A stretch of DNA of 64,000 bases, taken from contig CAVTHS010000014.1 of NCBI GenBank assembly GCA_963734535.1, positions 224,001 through 288,000 on the forward strand, given 5' to 3'. The notes beneath the pieces are model-generated. The model had not been told where the DNA came from, ran no database searches, and saw only the letters and a program-made list of their open reading frames with translations. The position numbers and the translations under genes are program-made. The first letter of the stretch is position 1. Each line of letters begins with the position of its first letter. Shown one piece after another: positions 50,578 to 58,832 of the stretch. Source of the stretch: an uncultured Chloroflexia bacterium. Lineage in GTDB: Bacteria > Chloroflexota > Limnocylindria > Limnocylindrales > CSP1-4.

Positions 50578-51216
50578 CTAGCTGGGCGAAGGCGCCGGGG
50601 ACGCGCTCGGTTTCGGCGACGCGCTCGGCTTGGGCGTCGCGGACGCGGCGGCGGACGGGCCTGCGGAGGCGCTCGGTGCGGCGGACGCCTGGGGGCTCGC
50701 GGCGGGCGACGCGGATGCGCTCGGCGCCACCGACGCGGCAGGCGCCACCGACGCGACCGGCCTCGGCGTCGGGATCGGCGTCAGGACGCCGCCCTTGCCC
50801 AGCACCACCGCATTCAGGAGGATCAGCACGAAGACGGCGATGACGCCGATCACGAAGATCCCCGACGCACGGTCGTCGACGTGCACCGCGATGTCGGACG
50901 CGGTCTGGGCTCGTGCCGGCGTGGCGGGCCCCCCGCCGCGAGGGCCACGGCCCGGTGCGCGGCTGGTGGCGCTTGCTCGCCCGGCGCGCGCGGTGGTCGA
51001 CGCGACCGCGGCGGCTCCGGTGACCTCTTCGGGCTCCGTGAACGCGGCATCCTCGCCGTCGGTCTCGTCGTCGAGCGCCGAGTCCGCGCCGTTCTCGTCG
51101 TCGAGCGCCGAGTCCGCGCCGTTCTCGTCGTCCGGCTGGGCGCCGTCGTCGAGCGCCTCGTCGTCGGGCGTCCCCTCCGGGAGCGCGCCGTGCGCGCGGT
51201 CGTCCGGCTCGGTCAT
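50578..51216 (-). CDS. Single-pass membrane protein with acidic N-terminus and Ser/Pro/Ala-rich C-terminal tail
   Basis: Asp/Glu-rich N-terminus, one TM (IFVIGVIAVFVLILLNAVVL), repeated SASP/ASVAP units. Confidence 0.6.
   Translation of the reverse strand: MTEPDDRAHGALPEGTPDDEALDDGAQPDDENGADSALDDENGADSALDDETDGEDAAFTEPEEVTGAAAVASTTARAGRASATSRAPGRGPRGGGPATPARAQTASDIAVHVDDRASGIFVIGVIAVFVLILLNAVVLGKGGVLTPIPTPRPVASVAPAASVAPSASASPAASPQASAAPSASAGPSAAASATPKPSASPKPSASPAPSPS
51063..51132. repeat. 30-bp in-frame tandem repeat, ~2.3 copies (DDENGADSAL)
   Basis: TCTCGTCGTCGAGCGCCGAGTCCGCGCCGT repeated exactly. Confidence 0.9.
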
Positions 51217-51421: not shown

Positions 51422-53470
51422 TCAAGCCTCGCGCAGTGGCCGGCTGGCGAGCCCGGCAAGCCCGGCCGCCAGCGTGATCACGCCGAAGACCACGAGCACC
51501 GGCCCCACCCCAGCGGCGTCGCCCAGGAGGCCGCTGGCCGCCATCGCGAACGTCATGGCCCCGAAGACCGCGGAGAACCGGAAGCCGATCACCCGCCCGA
51601 TCATGTCGCCGGGTGTCCGTTCCTGGAAGAGCGTCTGGGTCGGGATGATGAAGACCATGTTCGAGATGCCCATCGCGAACGCCAGGCCAAGCGCGAGCGG
51701 CAGGTTGTTGGTCAGGCCCAGGCCGACCACCGCGAGGCCGTACACGGCGTAGCCGCCGATCACCATCCGGCCCTTCGCGATCCGCGAACCCAGCAGGCCG
51801 ATCACGAACCCGCCGAGCAGGTTGCCGACGCCGATCGCCGTCTCGATGAAGGCGTAGGCGGCGGTCCAGTCGAGCGACCCGAGTCGCAGGACCACCTTCG
51901 CGTAGAGCGGCGTGAGCGCGATCGTCGCGCCGACCGTCAGCTGCCCCGCGACCGCCTGCAGCGTGTTGGCGAAGAGGACGGGCTCGCGACGAAGGAATCG
52001 CCAGCCGGCGGACAGGTCGGCGCGGATCCCGGCCAGCCCGGGGACGGGGTCGGCCGACCCAGCCGAGCGGACCACCGGCGGGATCACCACCACCATCACC
52101 AGGAGGGCCGACGCGACATACGACACGGAGTCGAGCCAGAACGCCAGCGGCAGCGCGCTCCCGAGGAACGCCACGAACAGCCCCGCGAAGGGATAGCCGA
52201 TGACGTCGGCCAGGGTCTCGTTGAGCCATGTCGCGGCGTTCGCCGACACGAGCTCATCCTCGTGCACGACCCTCGGCAGGACGGCCGTCCGGGCCGGCCG
52301 GAAGAAGATCGAGACGGTCGTCAGGAGGAAGACCAGCGGGTAGGCCAGCACGACGCTCACGCCGACGCCCGCGGGAATGAGCACGACGATCCCCGCGCGA
52401 ATGAGGTCGCTCGCGATCAGGACGTGCTTCTGGTTCCAGCGGTCGACCAGGACGCCCGCGAGCGGTCCGAAGAGGAGGTTCGGCAGCGTCGCCGCAACGA
52501 ACGTCAGGGCGCCCGCGATCGCCGAGTTCGTGGTCCCGTAGACAAGCGCCGCCAGCGCCACCTGGTGGATCCGGTCGCCGAAGAGGCTGATCACCTGCCC
52601 CGTCTGCAGCGCGGAGAAGGATCCGTTGACTGCGAGCCGAACGTACGGGTGATGGCGCGCCCGGATCGCGACCGTCCGGAGGACGCCGGGCAGGAGCGGT
52701 GCCGTGACGCCGCCCGACGACATCGGCGCCGGTGTTGCCAGCCCCGCGCCCGAGCCGCCCAGGATCATCGGCCGCTCCAGCGCAGCGATGCCAACCAGGC
52801 TCGCCGCGAGGCCGGTCCCTGCGCGCACGCCGCCCGTCTGCTCGGAGCCGGGCGATCCGGCCAGGACCACCGGCTGGCTCGGGTCGGCGCTTCGGAGCGT
52901 GCGGCCGTCCGACCCGACCTCGTCCGCGTGACGCACCATGCCCGCGAACAGGAAGAACCCGAGTCCGACGTCGAGGATCACGTCGCCGATCGAGAGAACA
53001 TTGCGCAGGAACGGCAGCGGAACCGGGATCACGTCGCCCAGCGGGCCCGCCGACCACATGAAGGCGGCGTCCAGGCTCGCCGGCAGGATCACGTGGATGG
53101 GCGAGAGGACGTCCGCCCGGCCGAACCCGGCCGCGACGAGGCTCGGTTCCCAGATTGGCATGAAGCCGCCGTTCACCAGGATCGCCGTGGCGTTGAGCCC
53201 GATCCCGACGAGCGCCAGGCTCATGCCCGGCCTCGCCCGGTTCGCCCACAGCCCGATGGCAAGGACGCCATAGGCGGCGGCAAGAAGCGGAACCCGCAGC
53301 GTCTCGGCGATGGCGACGTCCCGGCCCAGCGCCGCCTCGGTACCCAGGCGAAGGGCGAGCGCGCCGAAGATCACGAGCGGCCAGCGGAGGCGGATCGAGA
53401 TGAGGTTGTCGATGCGGCCGCCGACCGCGAACCCCGCGACCAGCCCGATGATCAGCCCCGCGATCAGCAC
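51422..53470 (-). CDS. DUF5317 domain fused to an MFS transporter (DHA3/macrolide-efflux-like)
   Basis: N-terminal GG..DNL..IRLRW, N..AILVNGGFMP, LGDVI, SIGDV; C-terminal GQVISLFGD, AGVLVDRWN, SDLIRA, FFRPA, GRV. Confidence 0.8.
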   Translation of the reverse strand: MLIAGLIIGLVAGFAVGGRIDNLISIRLRWPLVIFGALALRLGTEAALGRDVAIAETLRVPLLAAAYGVLAIGLWANRARPGMSLALVGIGLNATAILVNGGFMPIWEPSLVAAGFGRADVLSPIHVILPASLDAAFMWSAGPLGDVIPVPLPFLRNVLSIGDVILDVGLGFFLFAGMVRHADEVGSDGRTLRSADPSQPVVLAGSPGSEQTGGVRAGTGLAASLVGIAALERPMILGGSGAGLATPAPMSSGGVTAPLLPGVLRTVAIRARHHPYVRLAVNGSFSALQTGQVISLFGDRIHQVALAALVYGTTNSAIAGALTFVAATLPNLLFGPLAGVLVDRWNQKHVLIASDLIRAGIVVLIPAGVGVSVVLAYPLVFLLTTVSIFFRPARTAVLPRVVHEDELVSANAATWLNETLADVIGYPFAGLFVAFLGSALPLAFWLDSVSYVASALLVMVVVIPPVVRSAGSADPVPGLAGIRADLSAGWRFLRREPVLFANTLQAVAGQLTVGATIALTPLYAKVVLRLGSLDWTAAYAFIETAIGVGNLLGGFVIGLLGSRIAKGRMVIGGYAVYGLAVVGLGLTNNLPLALGLAFAMGISNMVFIIPTQTLFQERTPGDMIGRVIGFRFSAVFGAMTFAMAASGLLGDAAGVGPVLVVFGVITLAAGLAGLASRPLREA

Positions 53471-54885
53471 GGCTGGGCGGGGGTCAGGAAGCGTCCGTGG
53501 GTGGGCCGCCCGGCGCAGCCGGCGGAATCATCCGCGCCGCGGCCTGGGCGAGGAGCGGGACAGGTCGCGACTCGGTCGGGCGCCCGGGCGTCTGCCACGT
53601 CCTTGGCCCACGACGTGCGCACGAACGCGTCGACCATCACCGGATCGAACTGGACGCCCGCGTACTTGCGCAGCTCCGCGAGTGCCTGCTCGCGCGACAA
53701 CGGCCGCATCCGATACGGGCGCGCCGACGTCATCGCCTCGAACGCGTCGGCCACGTGGAGCACGCGCGCCAGCTTGGGGATCTCGTCGCCCATGAGCCGA
53801 TCCGGGTACCCGGAGCCGTTGTACCACTCGTGGTGGTGCCGGATGATCGGCAGCTCCGGGGCCAGCTTCCCGACGTGGGCAATGATGTTGGCCCCGATCA
53901 CCGGGTGCCGGTTCATGAGCGCCCGCTCGTCCCGCGTCAGCTTGTCCTGCTTGAGCAGCACGCTGTCCGGCACCCCGATCTTGCCGATGTCGTGCAGCAG
54001 CCCGCCCCACTCGAGGGCCTGGATCTCGTCGTCCTTCAACCGCATCACGTGCCCCATGTCCACCGAGATCAGCTGCACGCGCTCGCTGTGACCGGACGTG
54101 AAGGTATCCCTCGCATCGACTGCCTGCGCGAGTGCCCCGATGGTCTGCGTGAACATCTCCTGCACTTCGACGACTTGACGAAGTGCGACTCGCATGATGT
54201 AGATGGGCAGGACGCGAAGAAGAGAGTTGCCCACCATCCGACCTCGAGAGGCGATAGATCTGCGTCATCAGCCAAGCCAGGGGAGCGAGTGCAACCCTGT
54301 CGCGAAGAACGTCGGTCGATCCCCGAGCAAGACCGTTCTGGTCGATTGCTGCGTTCGAAGGGCGACCGTTATTGATGTGAAGCTCACGTTGAGCGCAAAG
54401 AACACAGACGCAGCCCGGCGAGCGTCGATACGAAGTCGCCGGCCGGAGCGGTTGATCCCGACGCCCGAGTTCCGTCAGGACGATCTGACGCCCGAACGTC
54501 CCGCTGCGATCGCAGGAACAACAAGTCCCGCGTGGTTGGCAAGGGTTCCGTACCACGGGACCCGACCCGAGTCTCCCGATACTCCTTGTCCCGATGGCGC
54601 GACGATCGCAGCCTGCGGCCTGGTCCTCCCAGACTCATCGCGGCGACGATTGGCGCGATCGACGTGTTGATGAGCGTAGCCCCGCGCCATCGGACTGGCA
54701 GAGCCGAGGCTAGGAGGGTCAGCCCCGTCCAGAAGACGATCCCGGCGAGGACGTCGATTGTCTCGGAGCCAAACAGGTCCAGCCGAATCTGCTATCTGAC
54801 AGGAATCACGACGACTCGTGACGACTAGCACAAGGTGCGCCGACCGTCACGAGCTCGCAATGTAGATGCTGAGGCTCTTAGGCAT
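53464..54885 (-). CDS. HD-GYP domain protein with an N-terminal multi-TM sensor region (TM part heavily frameshifted)
   Basis: DARD.FTSGHSERV, LLHDIGK, HP..G, HHHEWYNGSGYP, VADAFEAMTSARPYR, QFDP; upstream fragments MPKSLSIYI, GIVFWTGLTLLASALPV, PWYGTLANHAG; GAAGGGA RBS before ATG 54885. Confidence 0.82.
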
Positions 54886-54963
54886 CCGATCCCTTCAGGC
54901 GACCGTCGGCTGTCCTTGGACTGTAGACGTACCCGGACGAGCCGGAAGGTGAGACAGAAGTAC

Positions 54964-55053
54964 CTAGAACCCCTTCAGTGATGCTCCCCCAGCAATAACG
55001 GCCGCGCCGATAGGCCGACGGTACCGCGAGGAGGGCGCAGTCCGAGTCTTCAT
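54964..55053 (-). CDS. Small peptide (29 aa), candidate signalling precursor
   Basis: MKTRTAPSSRYRRPIGAAVIAGGASLKGF*; GGGAG upstream; co-oriented directly 5' of the HD-GYP gene. Confidence 0.6.
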   Translation of the reverse strand: MKTRTAPSSRYRRPIGAAVIAGGASLKGF

Positions 55054-55267
55054 CACTGGAGACCTAGCTCCCGTCCCCTGCCGTCAGAAGCCCTTGGAAC
55101 CGAACTCGGGACCCATCGTGTGCCCTCCAATGGGTTTCCGTGCCCCCGCGAAATCACGAAAACCGACCTAACAGATTGGTCGGTCGGTTGCACTAGTCGC
55201 TCCACCTCCCCCCTAAGTGCCCATTTCGGGAGGAGGTATCAGCGCGTCCGCTTGTTCACTTTGCTTC

Positions 55268-55285: not shown

Positions 55286-55344
55286 TCGGCGAACCGGACT
55301 TTAGGCTGCTGCGCGAGCAACGGTCAATACCGAACCCTCCCTAT

Positions 55345-58300
55345 CTAGCCCAAGAGATCCTCAAGGTGAGGCGGATCAAGGCCGAGGTCCCGCTGACCCA
55401 GTGAGTAGTGTCCGTACTGTTCGGCCGCGGCAGCGTAGGCGCCGACCAAGGTATAGAGCCGTATCACGGTCTTCTCGACCTCGTCGAGTTGCGGGTCAAT
55501 CTCAATGGCCCGCTGAGCGAGGCGCATCGCACGATCGATCTGACCAGTGTCTGCATCGTGCGTCGACCGCGCGCTCCACGATCTCGAGGTATCTCGCGTG
55601 CATCGATGCTCTCGGATCGGGGCCGCCCATTCTTCGTAGGTGAAGTCGAGGGCGAATCGTCCCGAGTAGATCTGTGACACGCGATCGGCCTGGGCCGGGG
55701 TCGCGAGAGCGCCGATCGACGCTGCAATACGTCGATACTCATGGCTTCTGCTCGTAACTAGGTCGGAGTCTAGCCACAGCACATCGGGGTCGTGATGCAG
55801 ATACCCGGGGCTCAAGTCCTCCGACGTAGTCGGGCTCGAATACGCGACGGAGGAAGTAGACGGTCTGGTGCAGTGAGTTGGCGGCCTGCTCCGGATCCTG
55901 ATCCGGCCACAGCGCGTCAAGTACCTGGTCCCGCGTTGCCGACATCTTTGGCTGAGCTAACAGGAAGCAAAGGAGCGCAAGAGCCTTCCGGCGGATCGTC
56001 GTCCCCGGTATCTCCATCGAACCAACCCAGATAACCAATCCGGCCGAGATCGTCGACATAGACCAAGTCGGCAACTCGACGGGCGAGCGACTTACCGAAG
56101 TCTGGATGACGGAGTTGTCCCTTGGACTCCTTCGAAGCCAGCCGGAGTAGGCGAACGTCCTCTTTGGTCCCGATTACCTCCAGGAGGCGGGCGGCTTGCC
56201 ATCGCTCTCGGCCTCCTGGAGCTGCAACGAGAATGCGAATTGGCGATTCGCCAGCGACGCGGGCGTGACTCAGCCTCTGCAGCGGACGACGTCGATCGCA
56301 GCGTCGGACAGGTCGGCGATCCTCCGGAGCACTGCCTCTGCCCGAACGCTCAAGAGCGCGCGATCGCGGAGCCCGATGGCGCTGACGATCGCCGACGCTT
56401 CGTCCGGCGTGGCAGATAGTCCACGCAACAGCGATGCGTCGATAAGGCGACCCAGCGCGCTGCTTGCCGCCGGGCTAACGTTTCGAGCGCTAGTCGAGAC
56501 GCGGGATCAACCGTTCCGAATGCGAGAACTCGCGAATTCAGTGCGCCAGCAGACGCTGGACGTGGAAGGCGGGGTATCCCGTCAGGACTCCGCAGGCATT
56601 CGGCGGATATGTGAGCCCGCGTCGCCTCGCCCACCTCACCAGGTCTTCCAGCCGCGAGAGCTGTCTCCGGTGAGAAGCTGGAAGCACTCCAGGGAGGCAT
56701 CTGGAGCACCCAGAAGGTCGGCCTCCGCAGCAGTCTGAGAGGCGCGCGTCCGGATCGTCGTAGGCTCCAATGATCTCGGCGCCCTCGACGAGGCTCTCAA
56801 ATCGCGTCCCGGCTCTCGCTGCCTCGAGCGAGTGTCACGTCCAGCTTCGCCTCCGCCTCGACCCAATCGCCGTCGTGGGCAAGGGCCCAAGCCTACAGTG
56901 TCTGCACCGACGATATTTCCGTTCCCGCGGAGGAGCGGCTAAGCGCATCCACGGCGCCAGCCGCCCGCGTCGCGGGTTGCGTGCACGTCGCCTCGAGCAC
57001 GCAACATCCACGCGGCATTCAAGAGCGAGATGCCTTGGTAGTGCCAGTAGCCCCGCCGCTCGAATCGGGTTGCGAGGTCCGCGATAGGCATGGATCGACA
57101 CCGCCGAGGTCTCCGTCGACGGGAATGATTCGAGCCAAGTCATGGCATCCGCGAGGGTGGCGATCGCTCGCCGGTTCTTCCGACAGAGATCGCGCCGCCC
57201 AGCGAACGGCGCGTTCGTAGGTCGCCTACCCCATAAGACGCGTTCATCATTGACCCCATCGCGATAGCAACGGTCATGCGACCGGTCGCTTCCTCCGACG
57301 ACACGATCGATGGCACCTGCGGCAGCCGCGGCTGCTCCGGCCGGATCACCGGCACGGAGTCGTCCTGATGCCACTATCACGTCGTGCCAGGCGCCGAGGG
57401 TGGCGGGGTCGAGATGGGAGGCGAGCTGCTCGGCGTCCTTGTAGGCGCCGGAGCCGAGGATGACGGGGACTGCCGCCGAGAGGACTCGGACGGCGTCGTC
57501 GGCCAGGTCGGCGGCGGCGAAGTGGTACGCCGCGACCGACCACGAGGCAGGCTCCGCGGCGCGCGCGATGCGGGCGTGGATCTGGCGGACCGCGATCGCC
57601 CCGACGGCGTCGTGCAGCCGGCCCTCCAGGAACGTCCGGACGAGCGGGTGGAAGAGGCGTCCGGCCTGCCCGGTTCGGCCGCGTCGCGACAGGAGACCCG
57701 CACCCTCGGCGGCGTCGAGGAAGCCGCGAGCGGCCTCCGGGGTGACCTCGGCGGCCGCGGACGCGAGCTCCGGCGTGACGACGGCCAGCAGGCAGCTCCG
57801 CTCGACGAAATCCTGGGCGGCACGTGGCATGCGCCCGACGACCTCCTCGGCAAGGTAGTCGTGCAGGTCGCCCTGCCGACCGGACAGGCCGCGGATGACG
57901 GTCCGAACCTCGTCGCGCGGCCGCCCGCGGACCACGGACTCGACGAGCCGCAGCGTGGCCGCCCATCCCTCGGTGGTGCGGGCGAGGTCGTCGAGGAGGT
58001 CGCGCTCGAGCGGGTCGTGGTAGGTGTCCCGGAAGAGGCGCTCCGTCTCGTCGCGGTCGAATCGCAGGTCGTCGGTGCCGATCTCGGCCGCTTCGCCGAT
58101 TGCGCGGAGGCGGGCGAGGGGGAGCGTTGGCCGCGTCCGCGAGGCGATGACGACCGCCAGCCGGTCGGGACCGCGGACCACGAGCTCACGGACGATCTCG
58201 CGGATCTCCGGGACGTCGTCCACCTGCTGGTAGTCGTCGAGGACCAGCGCCGTGCCGACCACCGCCCAGGCACGAAGCTCCGCCAGGAGTGTCCTGACGA

Positions 58301-58832
58301 TCGCGCTCCGGTTGTCGAGGGTCGCCGCGAGCTCGCGCAGGAGGCCTGCCGTGTTCGGGGCGAACTCCGGATCGATCTCGCGACCGGCGGCGACGATGTG
58401 ATGGATGAACACGGCCCAGTCGCGGTCGTGCTCGTCCAGGCGATACCAGAGCGTGCGCACGCGGGTACGCCGGCTCCAGTCCGCGAGGAGCGTGGTCTTC
58501 CCATAGCCCGGCTCGGCGATGACGAGGGCGAGCCGGGACCGCGTCTTCGCGTGCAGCCAGTCGATCAGCCGGTCGCGCCGGAGCGTCTCCTCCGGGAGCA
58601 TGGGCGGCTGGATCTTGCCGATCTGGACCGGATAGCCGAAGACTTCCACGTCGTCCTGCTGGGCAGCGCTCGGAGTCCGATGCGAGACGGGACCCGGCCC
58701 AACCGGGACGAGGCGTGTCGGGACCGTCTGCGGATCACGGGCGAGCGGGTGTGCCGACCACCGACCGCCCACCTGGGCGTGGGCGGGGGTCAGGGAAGCC
58801 GGGCCGGGAGCCGGGGAAGCCATCGCGGCCAT
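55345..58832 (-). CDS. MalT-like STAND ATPase with C-terminal winged helix + BTAD (SARP-type) regulator; distal half heavily frameshifted
   Basis: KIQPP..LRRDRL, AEPGYGKTT, WYRLD..DRD, LVLDDY, DLRF, TEGW, DYLAEEV, HPL; C-terminal fragments RRKALALLCFLL, RDQVLDALWPD..P..A.NSLHQTVYFLRR, YEEW, IDPQLDE. Confidence 0.78.

Follow-up and report, generated by a model that had tools for sequence, protein, structure and literature searches.

DUF5317, a conserved Asp/Asn membrane domain encoded beside small peptides and c-di-GMP enzymes, as a candidate peptidase or sensory input domain

An operon of an uncultured Chloroflexia bacterium raises the question of what a small membrane domain of the family DUF5317 does when it is fused to a transporter and encoded next to two very short peptides and an enzyme of cyclic diguanosine monophosphate (c-di-GMP) turnover. 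The fusion gene occupies positions 51422..53470 on the minus strand of a stretch of 64,000 nucleotides (assembly GCA_963734535.1, contig CAVTHS010000014.1, positions 224,001 to 288,000), which is referred to here as the window. An initial annotation of this DNA had noted a set of Asn and Asp residues resembling that of signal peptidase II (LspA), and had proposed that the domain is an LspA-like intramembrane aspartic peptidase joined in one chain to an exporter of the major facilitator superfamily (MFS). Judged from its sequence, DUF5317 is a well-defined candidate for a new family of membrane aspartyl peptidases or for a new sensory input domain, and we put forward, as a tentative possibility, that it is an outward-facing aspartyl peptidase for a mini-peptide.

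The fusion gene is a single open reading frame (ORF) of 682 codons. Its GTG start overlaps the stop of the preceding HD-GYP gene (GTGCTGA) and agrees with the starts of homologues, including a public protein of 682 amino acids that is 100% identical. In a Pfam hmmscan reported at E up to 0.1, the protein matched DUF5317 (PF17248) over residues 26-174 (E 2e-22, 80.3 bits against a cut-off of 25, profile positions 2-150 of 151; 83.5 bits at the DNA level), MFS_3 (PF05977) over residues 284-676 (E 2.5e-25, 89.4 bits against a cut-off of 27) and MFS_1 (PF07690; E 6e-17, 62 bits against a cut-off of 33.4), and nothing beyond these three. The motif strings that had been read at 52930..53470 were found there, the coordinates being those of residues 1-180: GLNATAILVNGGFMP forms residues 91-105, GPLGDVIPVP residues 142-151 and NVLSIGDVIL residues 157-166. 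The two Asp, D146 and D163, are indeed 17 residues apart, and the second stands at the start of a helix, modelled at 161-179. The parts of the gene are the following.

52931..53470, minus strand: DUF5317 domain, residues 1-180 (Pfam PF17248; AlphaFold2 model and DSSP elements)
53171..53194, minus strand: codons of N93 (53192-53194) and N100 (53171-53173), followed by the invariant M104-P105 (alignments)
52982..53035, minus strand: Asp-hairpin-Asp segment, with the codons of D146 (53033-53035) and D163 (52982-52984) (alignments, hhalign, AlphaFold2)
52619..52930, minus strand: linker rich in Gly, Ala, Ser and Pro, residues 181-284, predicted to be disordered (pLDDT, the predicted local distance difference test; hydropathy)
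51422..52618, minus strand: MFS_3 transporter domain (EntS-like, DHA3-type), residues 285-682 and the stop codon (Pfam, model)

The conservation of these residues was followed in two sets of sequences. A phmmer search of the whole library with residues 1-195 returned 1619 proteins at E <= 0.001, and a word-indexed search added stand-alone DUF5317 proteins of about 185 amino acids with 30-40% identity. In an alignment of 61 homologues, which extends down to 25-30% identity, G17, G82, N93, N100, M104, D146, G162 and D163 are invariant, so that the upstream Asn of the initial annotation is represented by two residues present in 61 of 61 sequences, and G13, G18, R29, N77, G89, P105, G115, P153, S160 and G169 are conserved in at least 90%. 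The second set, of 76 sequences, combined the query with 32 stand-alone proteins and with 43 domains from the N-termini of longer proteins; here N93 is conserved in 76 of 76 and N100 in 74 of 76, and the two Asp, whose loss would have told against the peptidase proposal, were retained in 75 sequences each, with one gap at D146 and one T at D163. On these alignments, the Asn/Asp motif is far beyond a chance pattern, and strict conservation of this kind is typical of catalytic or ligand-binding residues.

The fusion itself, also noted at the outset, was borne out by the presence of both DUF5317 and MFS_3 in 117 of the 120 best full-length homologues. An open frame of 612-753 amino acids runs through the DUF5317 match in 28 of 30 genomes from the two families of the window's class, and outside these two families the DUF5317 protein is stand-alone. 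One public protein of 993 amino acids (P0243) carries HD_5, HD, DUF5317 and MFS_3 in a single chain, either as a natural three-way fusion or as a read-through of the overlapping stop and start. Of 301 genomes sampled from the phylum, 92 contained DUF5317, and the module occurs widely among soil Chloroflexota and Gaiellales-type Actinomycetota. Like other EntS-like, DHA3-type MFS_3 transporters, the protein matches MFS_3 and MFS_1 in its C-terminal 400 residues and has 12 modelled helices there, and it differs from them in its N-terminal DUF5317 domain. Public records label the DUF5317-MFS proteins of about 680 amino acids as MFS permeases and nothing more, under names such as 'MFS family permease' and 'DHA3 family macrolide efflux protein-like', and DUF5317 was not mentioned in the literature searched.

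An AlphaFold2 model of the DUF5317 domain, built from its own alignment (pLDDT 94.6; predicted template modelling score, pTM, 0.87), has five transmembrane helices (2-15, 31-49, 59-76, 83-99 and 161-179, by DSSP), with a sheet of four strands (104-107, 126-129, 146-150 and 157-160) placed between the fourth helix and the fifth. N93 lies in the outer half of helix 4 and N100 at its outer end, D146 opens the third strand, and D163, within S-x-G-D, directly follows the fourth strand and opens helix 5. Because D146 stands at a strand start and D163 just past the partner strand 157-160, in a hairpin, the two Asp are predicted to be adjacent to each other. The full-length model (pLDDT 79.7, pTM 0.79) contains twelve long helices within residues 283-681 and falls below a pLDDT of 50 at residues 185-260, and no 19-residue window in residues 182-317 reached a Kyte-Doolittle value of 1.5, so that this region has no membrane-spanning stretch.

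The side of the membrane on which the Asp pair lies can be deduced from this arrangement. MFS transporters begin, at their N-terminus, in the cytoplasm. Since a helix-free, disordered linker joins the domain to such an N-in module, helix 5 would run from outside to inside and the domain would be N-out/C-in. In that orientation, D146, D163, N100 and M104-P105 would therefore be at the outer membrane face, and the outer half of helix 4, with N93, would lie towards it. By the models, the Asp pair must face outward, and basic residues in the loops 16-30 and 77-82 are consistent with this topology.

The same features invite the comparison with LspA (MEROPS A8, PF01252). In the published account, the two catalytic residues of S. 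aureus LspA are Asp118 and Asp136, 18 residues apart and close to the outer surface, and the enzyme is described as having four transmembrane helices, the first of them followed by a beta-cradle (PMC6952399). DUF5317 resembles it in a pair of conserved Asp, spaced by 17-18 residues and lying close to the outer face of the membrane, in a second Asp that opens the last transmembrane helix and is followed by x-x-[IL]-x-x-G, and in a signal-peptide-like partner whose hydrophobic core ends in small residues. When the DUF5317 profile was aligned by hhalign with a profile of 33 LspA sequences from the phylum, the probability was 3.5-7% (36% with the C-terminal pieces alone), and the top local alignment placed DUF5317 140-184 on LspA 131-176, which is exactly the dyad segment, with D146 on the Asp of VVDF and D163 on the Asp of NVAD, the two catalytic residues of LspA. 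The score of 24.3 exceeded both controls: reversed profiles gave 15.1, and 40 column shuffles 8.9-18.8. The shuffles are a control that destroys helix periodicity, and the fairer, reversed control is a single value, which lessens what the peptidase reading can draw from the comparison.

Beyond the dyad, the likeness gave way. The motifs GNxxDR (helix 3) and FNxAD of LspA are not in DUF5317; in the hhalign alignment, GNLxDR and FNvAD faced non-conserved or different columns, and S-x-G-D takes the place of N-x-A-D. DUF5317 has five helices with its sheet between helices 4 and 5, as against the four helices and early beta-cradle of LspA. LspA substrates end their lipobox in Cys, whereas the operon peptides have no Cys at the motif (...LAGGASLKGF). 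Peptidase_A8 was not matched by the 682-residue protein at E up to 0.1, a sequence search of the PDB with the DUF5317 profile gave 0 matches at E up to 10, and Foldseek against the PDB with the DUF5317 model gave none at E <= 0.001 and 66 weak rows from which LspA was absent. Three fold searches in all returned no LspA row and no protease fold, and an ESM Atlas look-up of residues 1-190, with PF17248 skipped, yielded no usable match. The proposal of an LspA-like intramembrane aspartic peptidase thus kept its invariant Asp and Asn residues and the local dyad alignment, and found no backing in the family profile, the fold searches or the helix count.

That DUF5317 is nonetheless a true, very diverged paralogue of LspA cutting lipoprotein signal peptides can hardly be maintained. 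The spacing of the Asp residues, the second of which opens the last helix, and the hhalign alignment on that segment speak for it. A canonical LspA is already encoded on another contig of the same genome (PF01252 E 9.9e-33; motifs GNLADR, VVDF and NVAD, Asp spacing 18) and was found in 60 of 61 genomes of the phylum sample, and the missing motifs, the different helix number and sheet position and the missing lipobox Cys all speak against it, leaving this reading already close to refuted. By these comparisons, DUF5317 is not a member of the LspA family and would not be expected to process lipoproteins. The likeness of the dyads points weakly to convergence on an Asp-loop-Asp-helix device, or to a very remote remnant of one, and is not evidence of membership.

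A function for the domain is better sought in the company it keeps. The operon begins with a c-di-GMP-II riboswitch, followed by a 10-residue peptide (A), a 29-residue peptide (B), a membrane HD-GYP gene and, last, the DUF5317-MFS gene, with the following features upstream of the fusion gene.

55298..55327, minus strand: promoter-like site TTGACC-18-TAAAGT, about 40 nucleotides before the aptamer (consensus match; 1 found against 0.3 expected)
55173..55258, minus strand: c-di-GMP-II riboswitch aptamer (Rfam RF01786, 61.4 bits against a gathering threshold of 53.5, E 5e-12)
55084..55116, minus strand: peptide A, 10 amino acids, MGPEFGSKGF, with its own GGAGGG ribosome-binding site before it (ORF reading)
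54964..55056, minus strand: peptide B, 29 amino acids from the ATG at 55053, or 30 from a GTG (ORF search)
54238..54963, minus strand: 5' part of the HD-GYP gene, coding in relatives for a membrane domain of several helices; frame-broken here (tblastn)
53464..54237, minus strand: catalytic part (HD_5) of the HD-GYP c-di-GMP phosphodiesterase, the longest ATG-started ORF (Pfam HD_5 E 3e-38, HD E 4e-19)

The match to RF01786 spans the full model, 1-84, and the riboswitch was found in 19 of 20 loci of relatives. At 20 DUF5317 loci outside the window's class, no RF01786 match reached the gathering threshold in flanks of 1.5-3 kb, and the riboswitch link therefore appears to be class-specific. In having an aptamer above the gathering threshold directly upstream, the operon is like other c-di-GMP-II riboswitch operons, and it differs from them in the genes controlled, which here are two micro-ORFs, an HD-GYP gene and DUF5317-MFS. 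After the aptamer, a hairpin GACCGACC-9 nt-GGTCGGTTTT was read by eye; it was not called by the terminator scan, its 9-nucleotide loop being above the limit of that scan.

Both peptides recur in relatives. An ORF of 9-10 codons occupies the site of peptide A in 18 of 19 loci, and peptide B, with GGAS and a four-residue tail, was found in 17 of 19. Peptide B is signal-peptide-like, with a basic N-terminal end, a hydrophobic core, an invariant AGGAS (11 of 11 aligned copies) and the tail LKGF, and the consensus of the relatives reads MKxRLLRLLxxxxxLxAxxLAGGASLKGF; by its sequence, it would be in effect a signal peptide with a five-residue tail. The tails of peptides A and B match. In more distant relatives, the two tails co-vary, as in L098-L100, where both end in KGW. 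Peptide A may itself be a product, may serve as an exported signal, or may be a leader ORF with a regulatory role.

The pairing with c-di-GMP enzymes and with mini-peptides extends well beyond this operon. An HD-GYP gene stands beside DUF5317 in 20 of 20 loci of the same genus, within 1.5 kb in 14 of 30 stand-alone DUF5317 loci of the phylum, and, immediately upstream, in 12 of the 13 loci that came from Gaiellales-type Actinomycetota and allied metagenome-assembled genomes (MAGs). One of these last upstream genes is a GGDEF-HD-GYP (L103), and in one Chloroflexota locus a GGDEF-EAL gene stands upstream instead (L078). Mini-ORFs that encode signal-peptide-like products with [AGS]-G-A-[PSG] and a short tail lie directly upstream in 11 of the 30 stand-alone loci, eight of them found by a regular expression, which gave nothing in other frames or on the other strand, and three by eye; similar mini-ORFs precede the HD-GYP/DUF5317 pair in all six Gaiellales-type Actinomycetota loci inspected. 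An Actinomycetota-type MAG (L107) has three tandem mini-ORFs, ending in ...SGAGMRWW or ...SGAGLRWGELSAILNWF, before GGDEF/HD-GYP and DUF5317, which means that the peptide gene has been multiplied in some lineages. At 5 of the 30 stand-alone loci, the start of DUF5317 coincides with the end of an MFS-like gene (in L070 an MFS_3, E 9e-37 in Pfam), and the MFS link thus takes two forms, a fusion and a pair of neighbouring genes in the reverse order. This gene context supports a peptide-handling role for DUF5317.

A structure prediction of the DUF5317 domain in complex with the intact peptide B of a relative (L086) scored 0.59, against 0.00 for the best of three controls; the runs shared at least 94% of contacts, and the partner had a pLDDT of at least 74. 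The mark set for this score is reached by 58 of 80 solved complexes and by 2 of 110 mismatched pairs, and 7 of those 80 solved complexes, together with both mismatches, lie at 0.60 or under. The prediction gives weak support and slightly raises the odds that the peptide and DUF5317 pair physically.

On the established basis of the protein's build, its conserved residues, the argument on topology and the linkage of genes, a course of docking, cleavage, transport, sensing and feedback may be inferred. Peptide B would insert N-in/C-out, which would bring AGGAS to the outer leaflet at the height of the two Asp; DUF5317 would dock it, and the Asp pair would cut at or beside AGGA|S. The cleavage would be LspA-type chemistry in a different fold, with no common ancestry implied, and would release the short tail SLKGF to the cell exterior. 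The task of the MFS module might be to carry peptide A (...SKGF), the twin that lacks a leader, out of the cell, or to dispose of the hydrophobic remnant. The HD-GYP protein would sense the product through its membrane domain and alter c-di-GMP, and the riboswitch would return the c-di-GMP signal to the operon.

Several observations weigh against this peptidase reading. A relationship to known peptidases was never significant in the sequence comparisons, whether by hhalign, by Pfam A8 or by the profile search of the PDB. The complex score lies in the weak band and, as a model, does not separate a substrate from a subunit. The [AGS]-G-A motif, at which cleavage is proposed, would also fit ordinary signal peptidase I. 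The role of the invariant Asp and Asn could instead lie in binding, either of a cation or of Lys in the peptide's tail. Finally, reading-frame breaks in the window affect the core of peptide B and the 5' region of the HD-GYP gene, so that the circuit may, in this copy, be in decay or wrongly assembled.

The main alternative, possible if doubtful, is that DUF5317 is instead a non-catalytic receptor or partner that binds the mini-peptide in the membrane as a small subunit or ligand, much as sensors are modulated by small membrane proteins, and gives input to the c-di-GMP enzyme and the fused transporter; the Asp and Asn would then form a polar binding site, for example for the Lys or Arg of the tail and the C-terminus. 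A sensory input module would fit the neighbouring enzymes, whose type varies (HD-GYP, GGDEF-HD-GYP or GGDEF-EAL) and which always belong to c-di-GMP turnover, and the conserved cytoplasmic motifs G17-G18, R29 and N77-R78-x-x-P81-G82 could contact such a partner. The complex prediction weakly favours binding, and the fold searches produced no protease. Against a receptor, two acidic and two amide residues invariant across two phyla are more usual for chemistry than for docking, the local alignment with the LspA dyad would have to be a coincidence, and the recurrent link to MFS_3 would be left unexplained. A role unrelated to the peptides, with DUF5317 forming an outward cation or proton site, or an enzyme acting on a small molecule or lipid together with MFS_3, and with the mini-ORFs encoding independent small membrane proteins or serving as leader ORFs, is unlikely. 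Asp/Asn clusters in membranes often bind cations, the adjacency or fusion to MFS_3 recurs in two gene orders, the fold had no known relative in the fold searches, and a mini-ORF accompanies only 11 of the 30 stand-alone loci; this last count is probably too low, as the short 1.5-kb flanks probably conceal further mini-ORFs. It would also leave unaccounted for the co-occurrence of mini-peptide, DUF5317 and c-di-GMP enzyme in two phyla, and the position of the peptide motif at the membrane level of the Asp pair.

The one-chain processor and exporter that the initial annotation had envisaged was modelled on peptidase-containing ABC transporters (PCATs), in which cargo is cleaved on the cytoplasmic side. 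DUF5317 would accordingly remove a leader and the MFS module would then export the cargo, an arrangement that resembles a PCAT in placing a putative peptide-processing module and an exporter in one chain with small peptide genes adjoining. The conservation of the fusion, in 117 of the 120 best homologues and 28 of the 30 class genomes, the peptides encoded within the operon and a full-length pTM of 0.79 despite a 76-residue disordered linker, which hints at packed modules, could be read in its favour. The topology contradicts it: since the Asp pair is outward and an exporter loads from the cytoplasm or inner leaflet, cutting cannot precede export and the order of events cannot be that of a PCAT. 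PCATs, moreover, combine an ABC transporter with C39, whereas the transporter here is MFS_3 and no C39, ABC or other peptidase domain was found in Pfam at E up to 0.1; peptide A is leaderless, and peptide B is almost wholly signal peptide. The analogy was rejected for its outward-facing putative active site, and this reading is very improbable.

With regard to the peptidase reading, parallels include AgrB-AgrD, the Eep/PptAB pheromones, which are cut from signal peptides, and the Phr and RRNPP peptides, where a tiny precursor is matured at the membrane to a short extracellular peptide. As in those systems, the peptide genes cluster with the gene of a sensor or regulator. The protein families differ, as does the chemistry, and the output there is a two-component or RRNPP regulator, in contrast to c-di-GMP turnover and a riboswitch here. 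In its most extended form, the proposal would make DUF5317 the founder of a family of outward-facing membrane aspartyl peptidases that is new and has its own fold, acting on mini-proteins of 25-45 residues, each a signal peptide with a tail, whose released tails (here ...SLKGF) serve as autocrine or quorum signals read by membrane c-di-GMP enzymes, the loop being closed in this class by the riboswitch and by a fused MFS exporter for the leaderless twin peptide; taken as a whole, that picture is rather improbable. If true, it would add a peptide layer to second-messenger control across at least the Chloroflexota and Actinomycetota, and if the Asp are catalytic, DUF5317 would join A8, A22 and A24 as a membrane aspartyl peptidase of a fourth kind, distinct from them in structure. 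Should it instead prove to be a receptor without catalytic activity, DUF5317 would still add a new domain to the inputs of c-di-GMP enzymes. The module ties micro-ORF peptides to c-di-GMP turnover and a riboswitch, and the literature searched held no link of HD-GYP, c-di-GMP-II riboswitch and peptide. As a candidate substrate is encoded beside DUF5317, catalysis is directly testable.

The frame breaks in the window were traced by comparison with relatives and with public data. In tblastn with the 514-residue HD-GYP protein of a relative, residues 25-88 matched in one frame and 106-463 in another, and MPKSLSIYIASS in the 5' part of the gene halts after 12 codons. In peptide B, a 1-nucleotide deletion and a 1-nucleotide insertion scramble 10 residues of the hydrophobic core, as seen in a DNA alignment. 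Contigs of four public runs are without single bases at 54797, 54812, 54834 and 54889, with further differences at 55016 and 55035 in three of these runs; these differences at the break sites mean that the breaks are peculiar to this assembly or strain. Relative to the related contigs of these runs, the window has many single-base indels in 54130-55130. The best holder has a 992-nucleotide contig here with 42 other letters and 36 gaps, and its flanking contigs are near-identical to the window. The indels in 54130-55130 could be an assembly error or strain-specific decay.

Contigs of an RNA library (metatranscriptome run X15), which show no strand, level or transcript ends, span 54691-55234 and parts of the HD-GYP gene, and none of them lies on 53400-53527. 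The summed contig depth is 100-340 at the riboswitch leader (55120-55255), as against about 13 in the peptide region and 0-20 across the HD-GYP gene. This depth is compatible with abundant short leader transcripts, and riboswitches of other organisms or DNA carry-over may contribute to it.

Downstream of DUF5317-MFS, at 50578-51216 on the minus strand, a 212-residue protein rich in Ala, Ser and Pro has no Pfam match, one hydrophobic stretch and acidic repeats. Upstream of the operon, and in the same orientation, a SARP-type regulator extends over two overlapping frames at 55345-56074 on the minus strand (Trans_reg_C E 1.5e-7, BTAD E 7e-6), and a 665-residue protein at 56835-58832, also on the minus strand, has weak AAA_16 and AAA_22 matches under the Pfam cut-offs. 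Together, these two resemble one large STAND-type regulator with a frame break.

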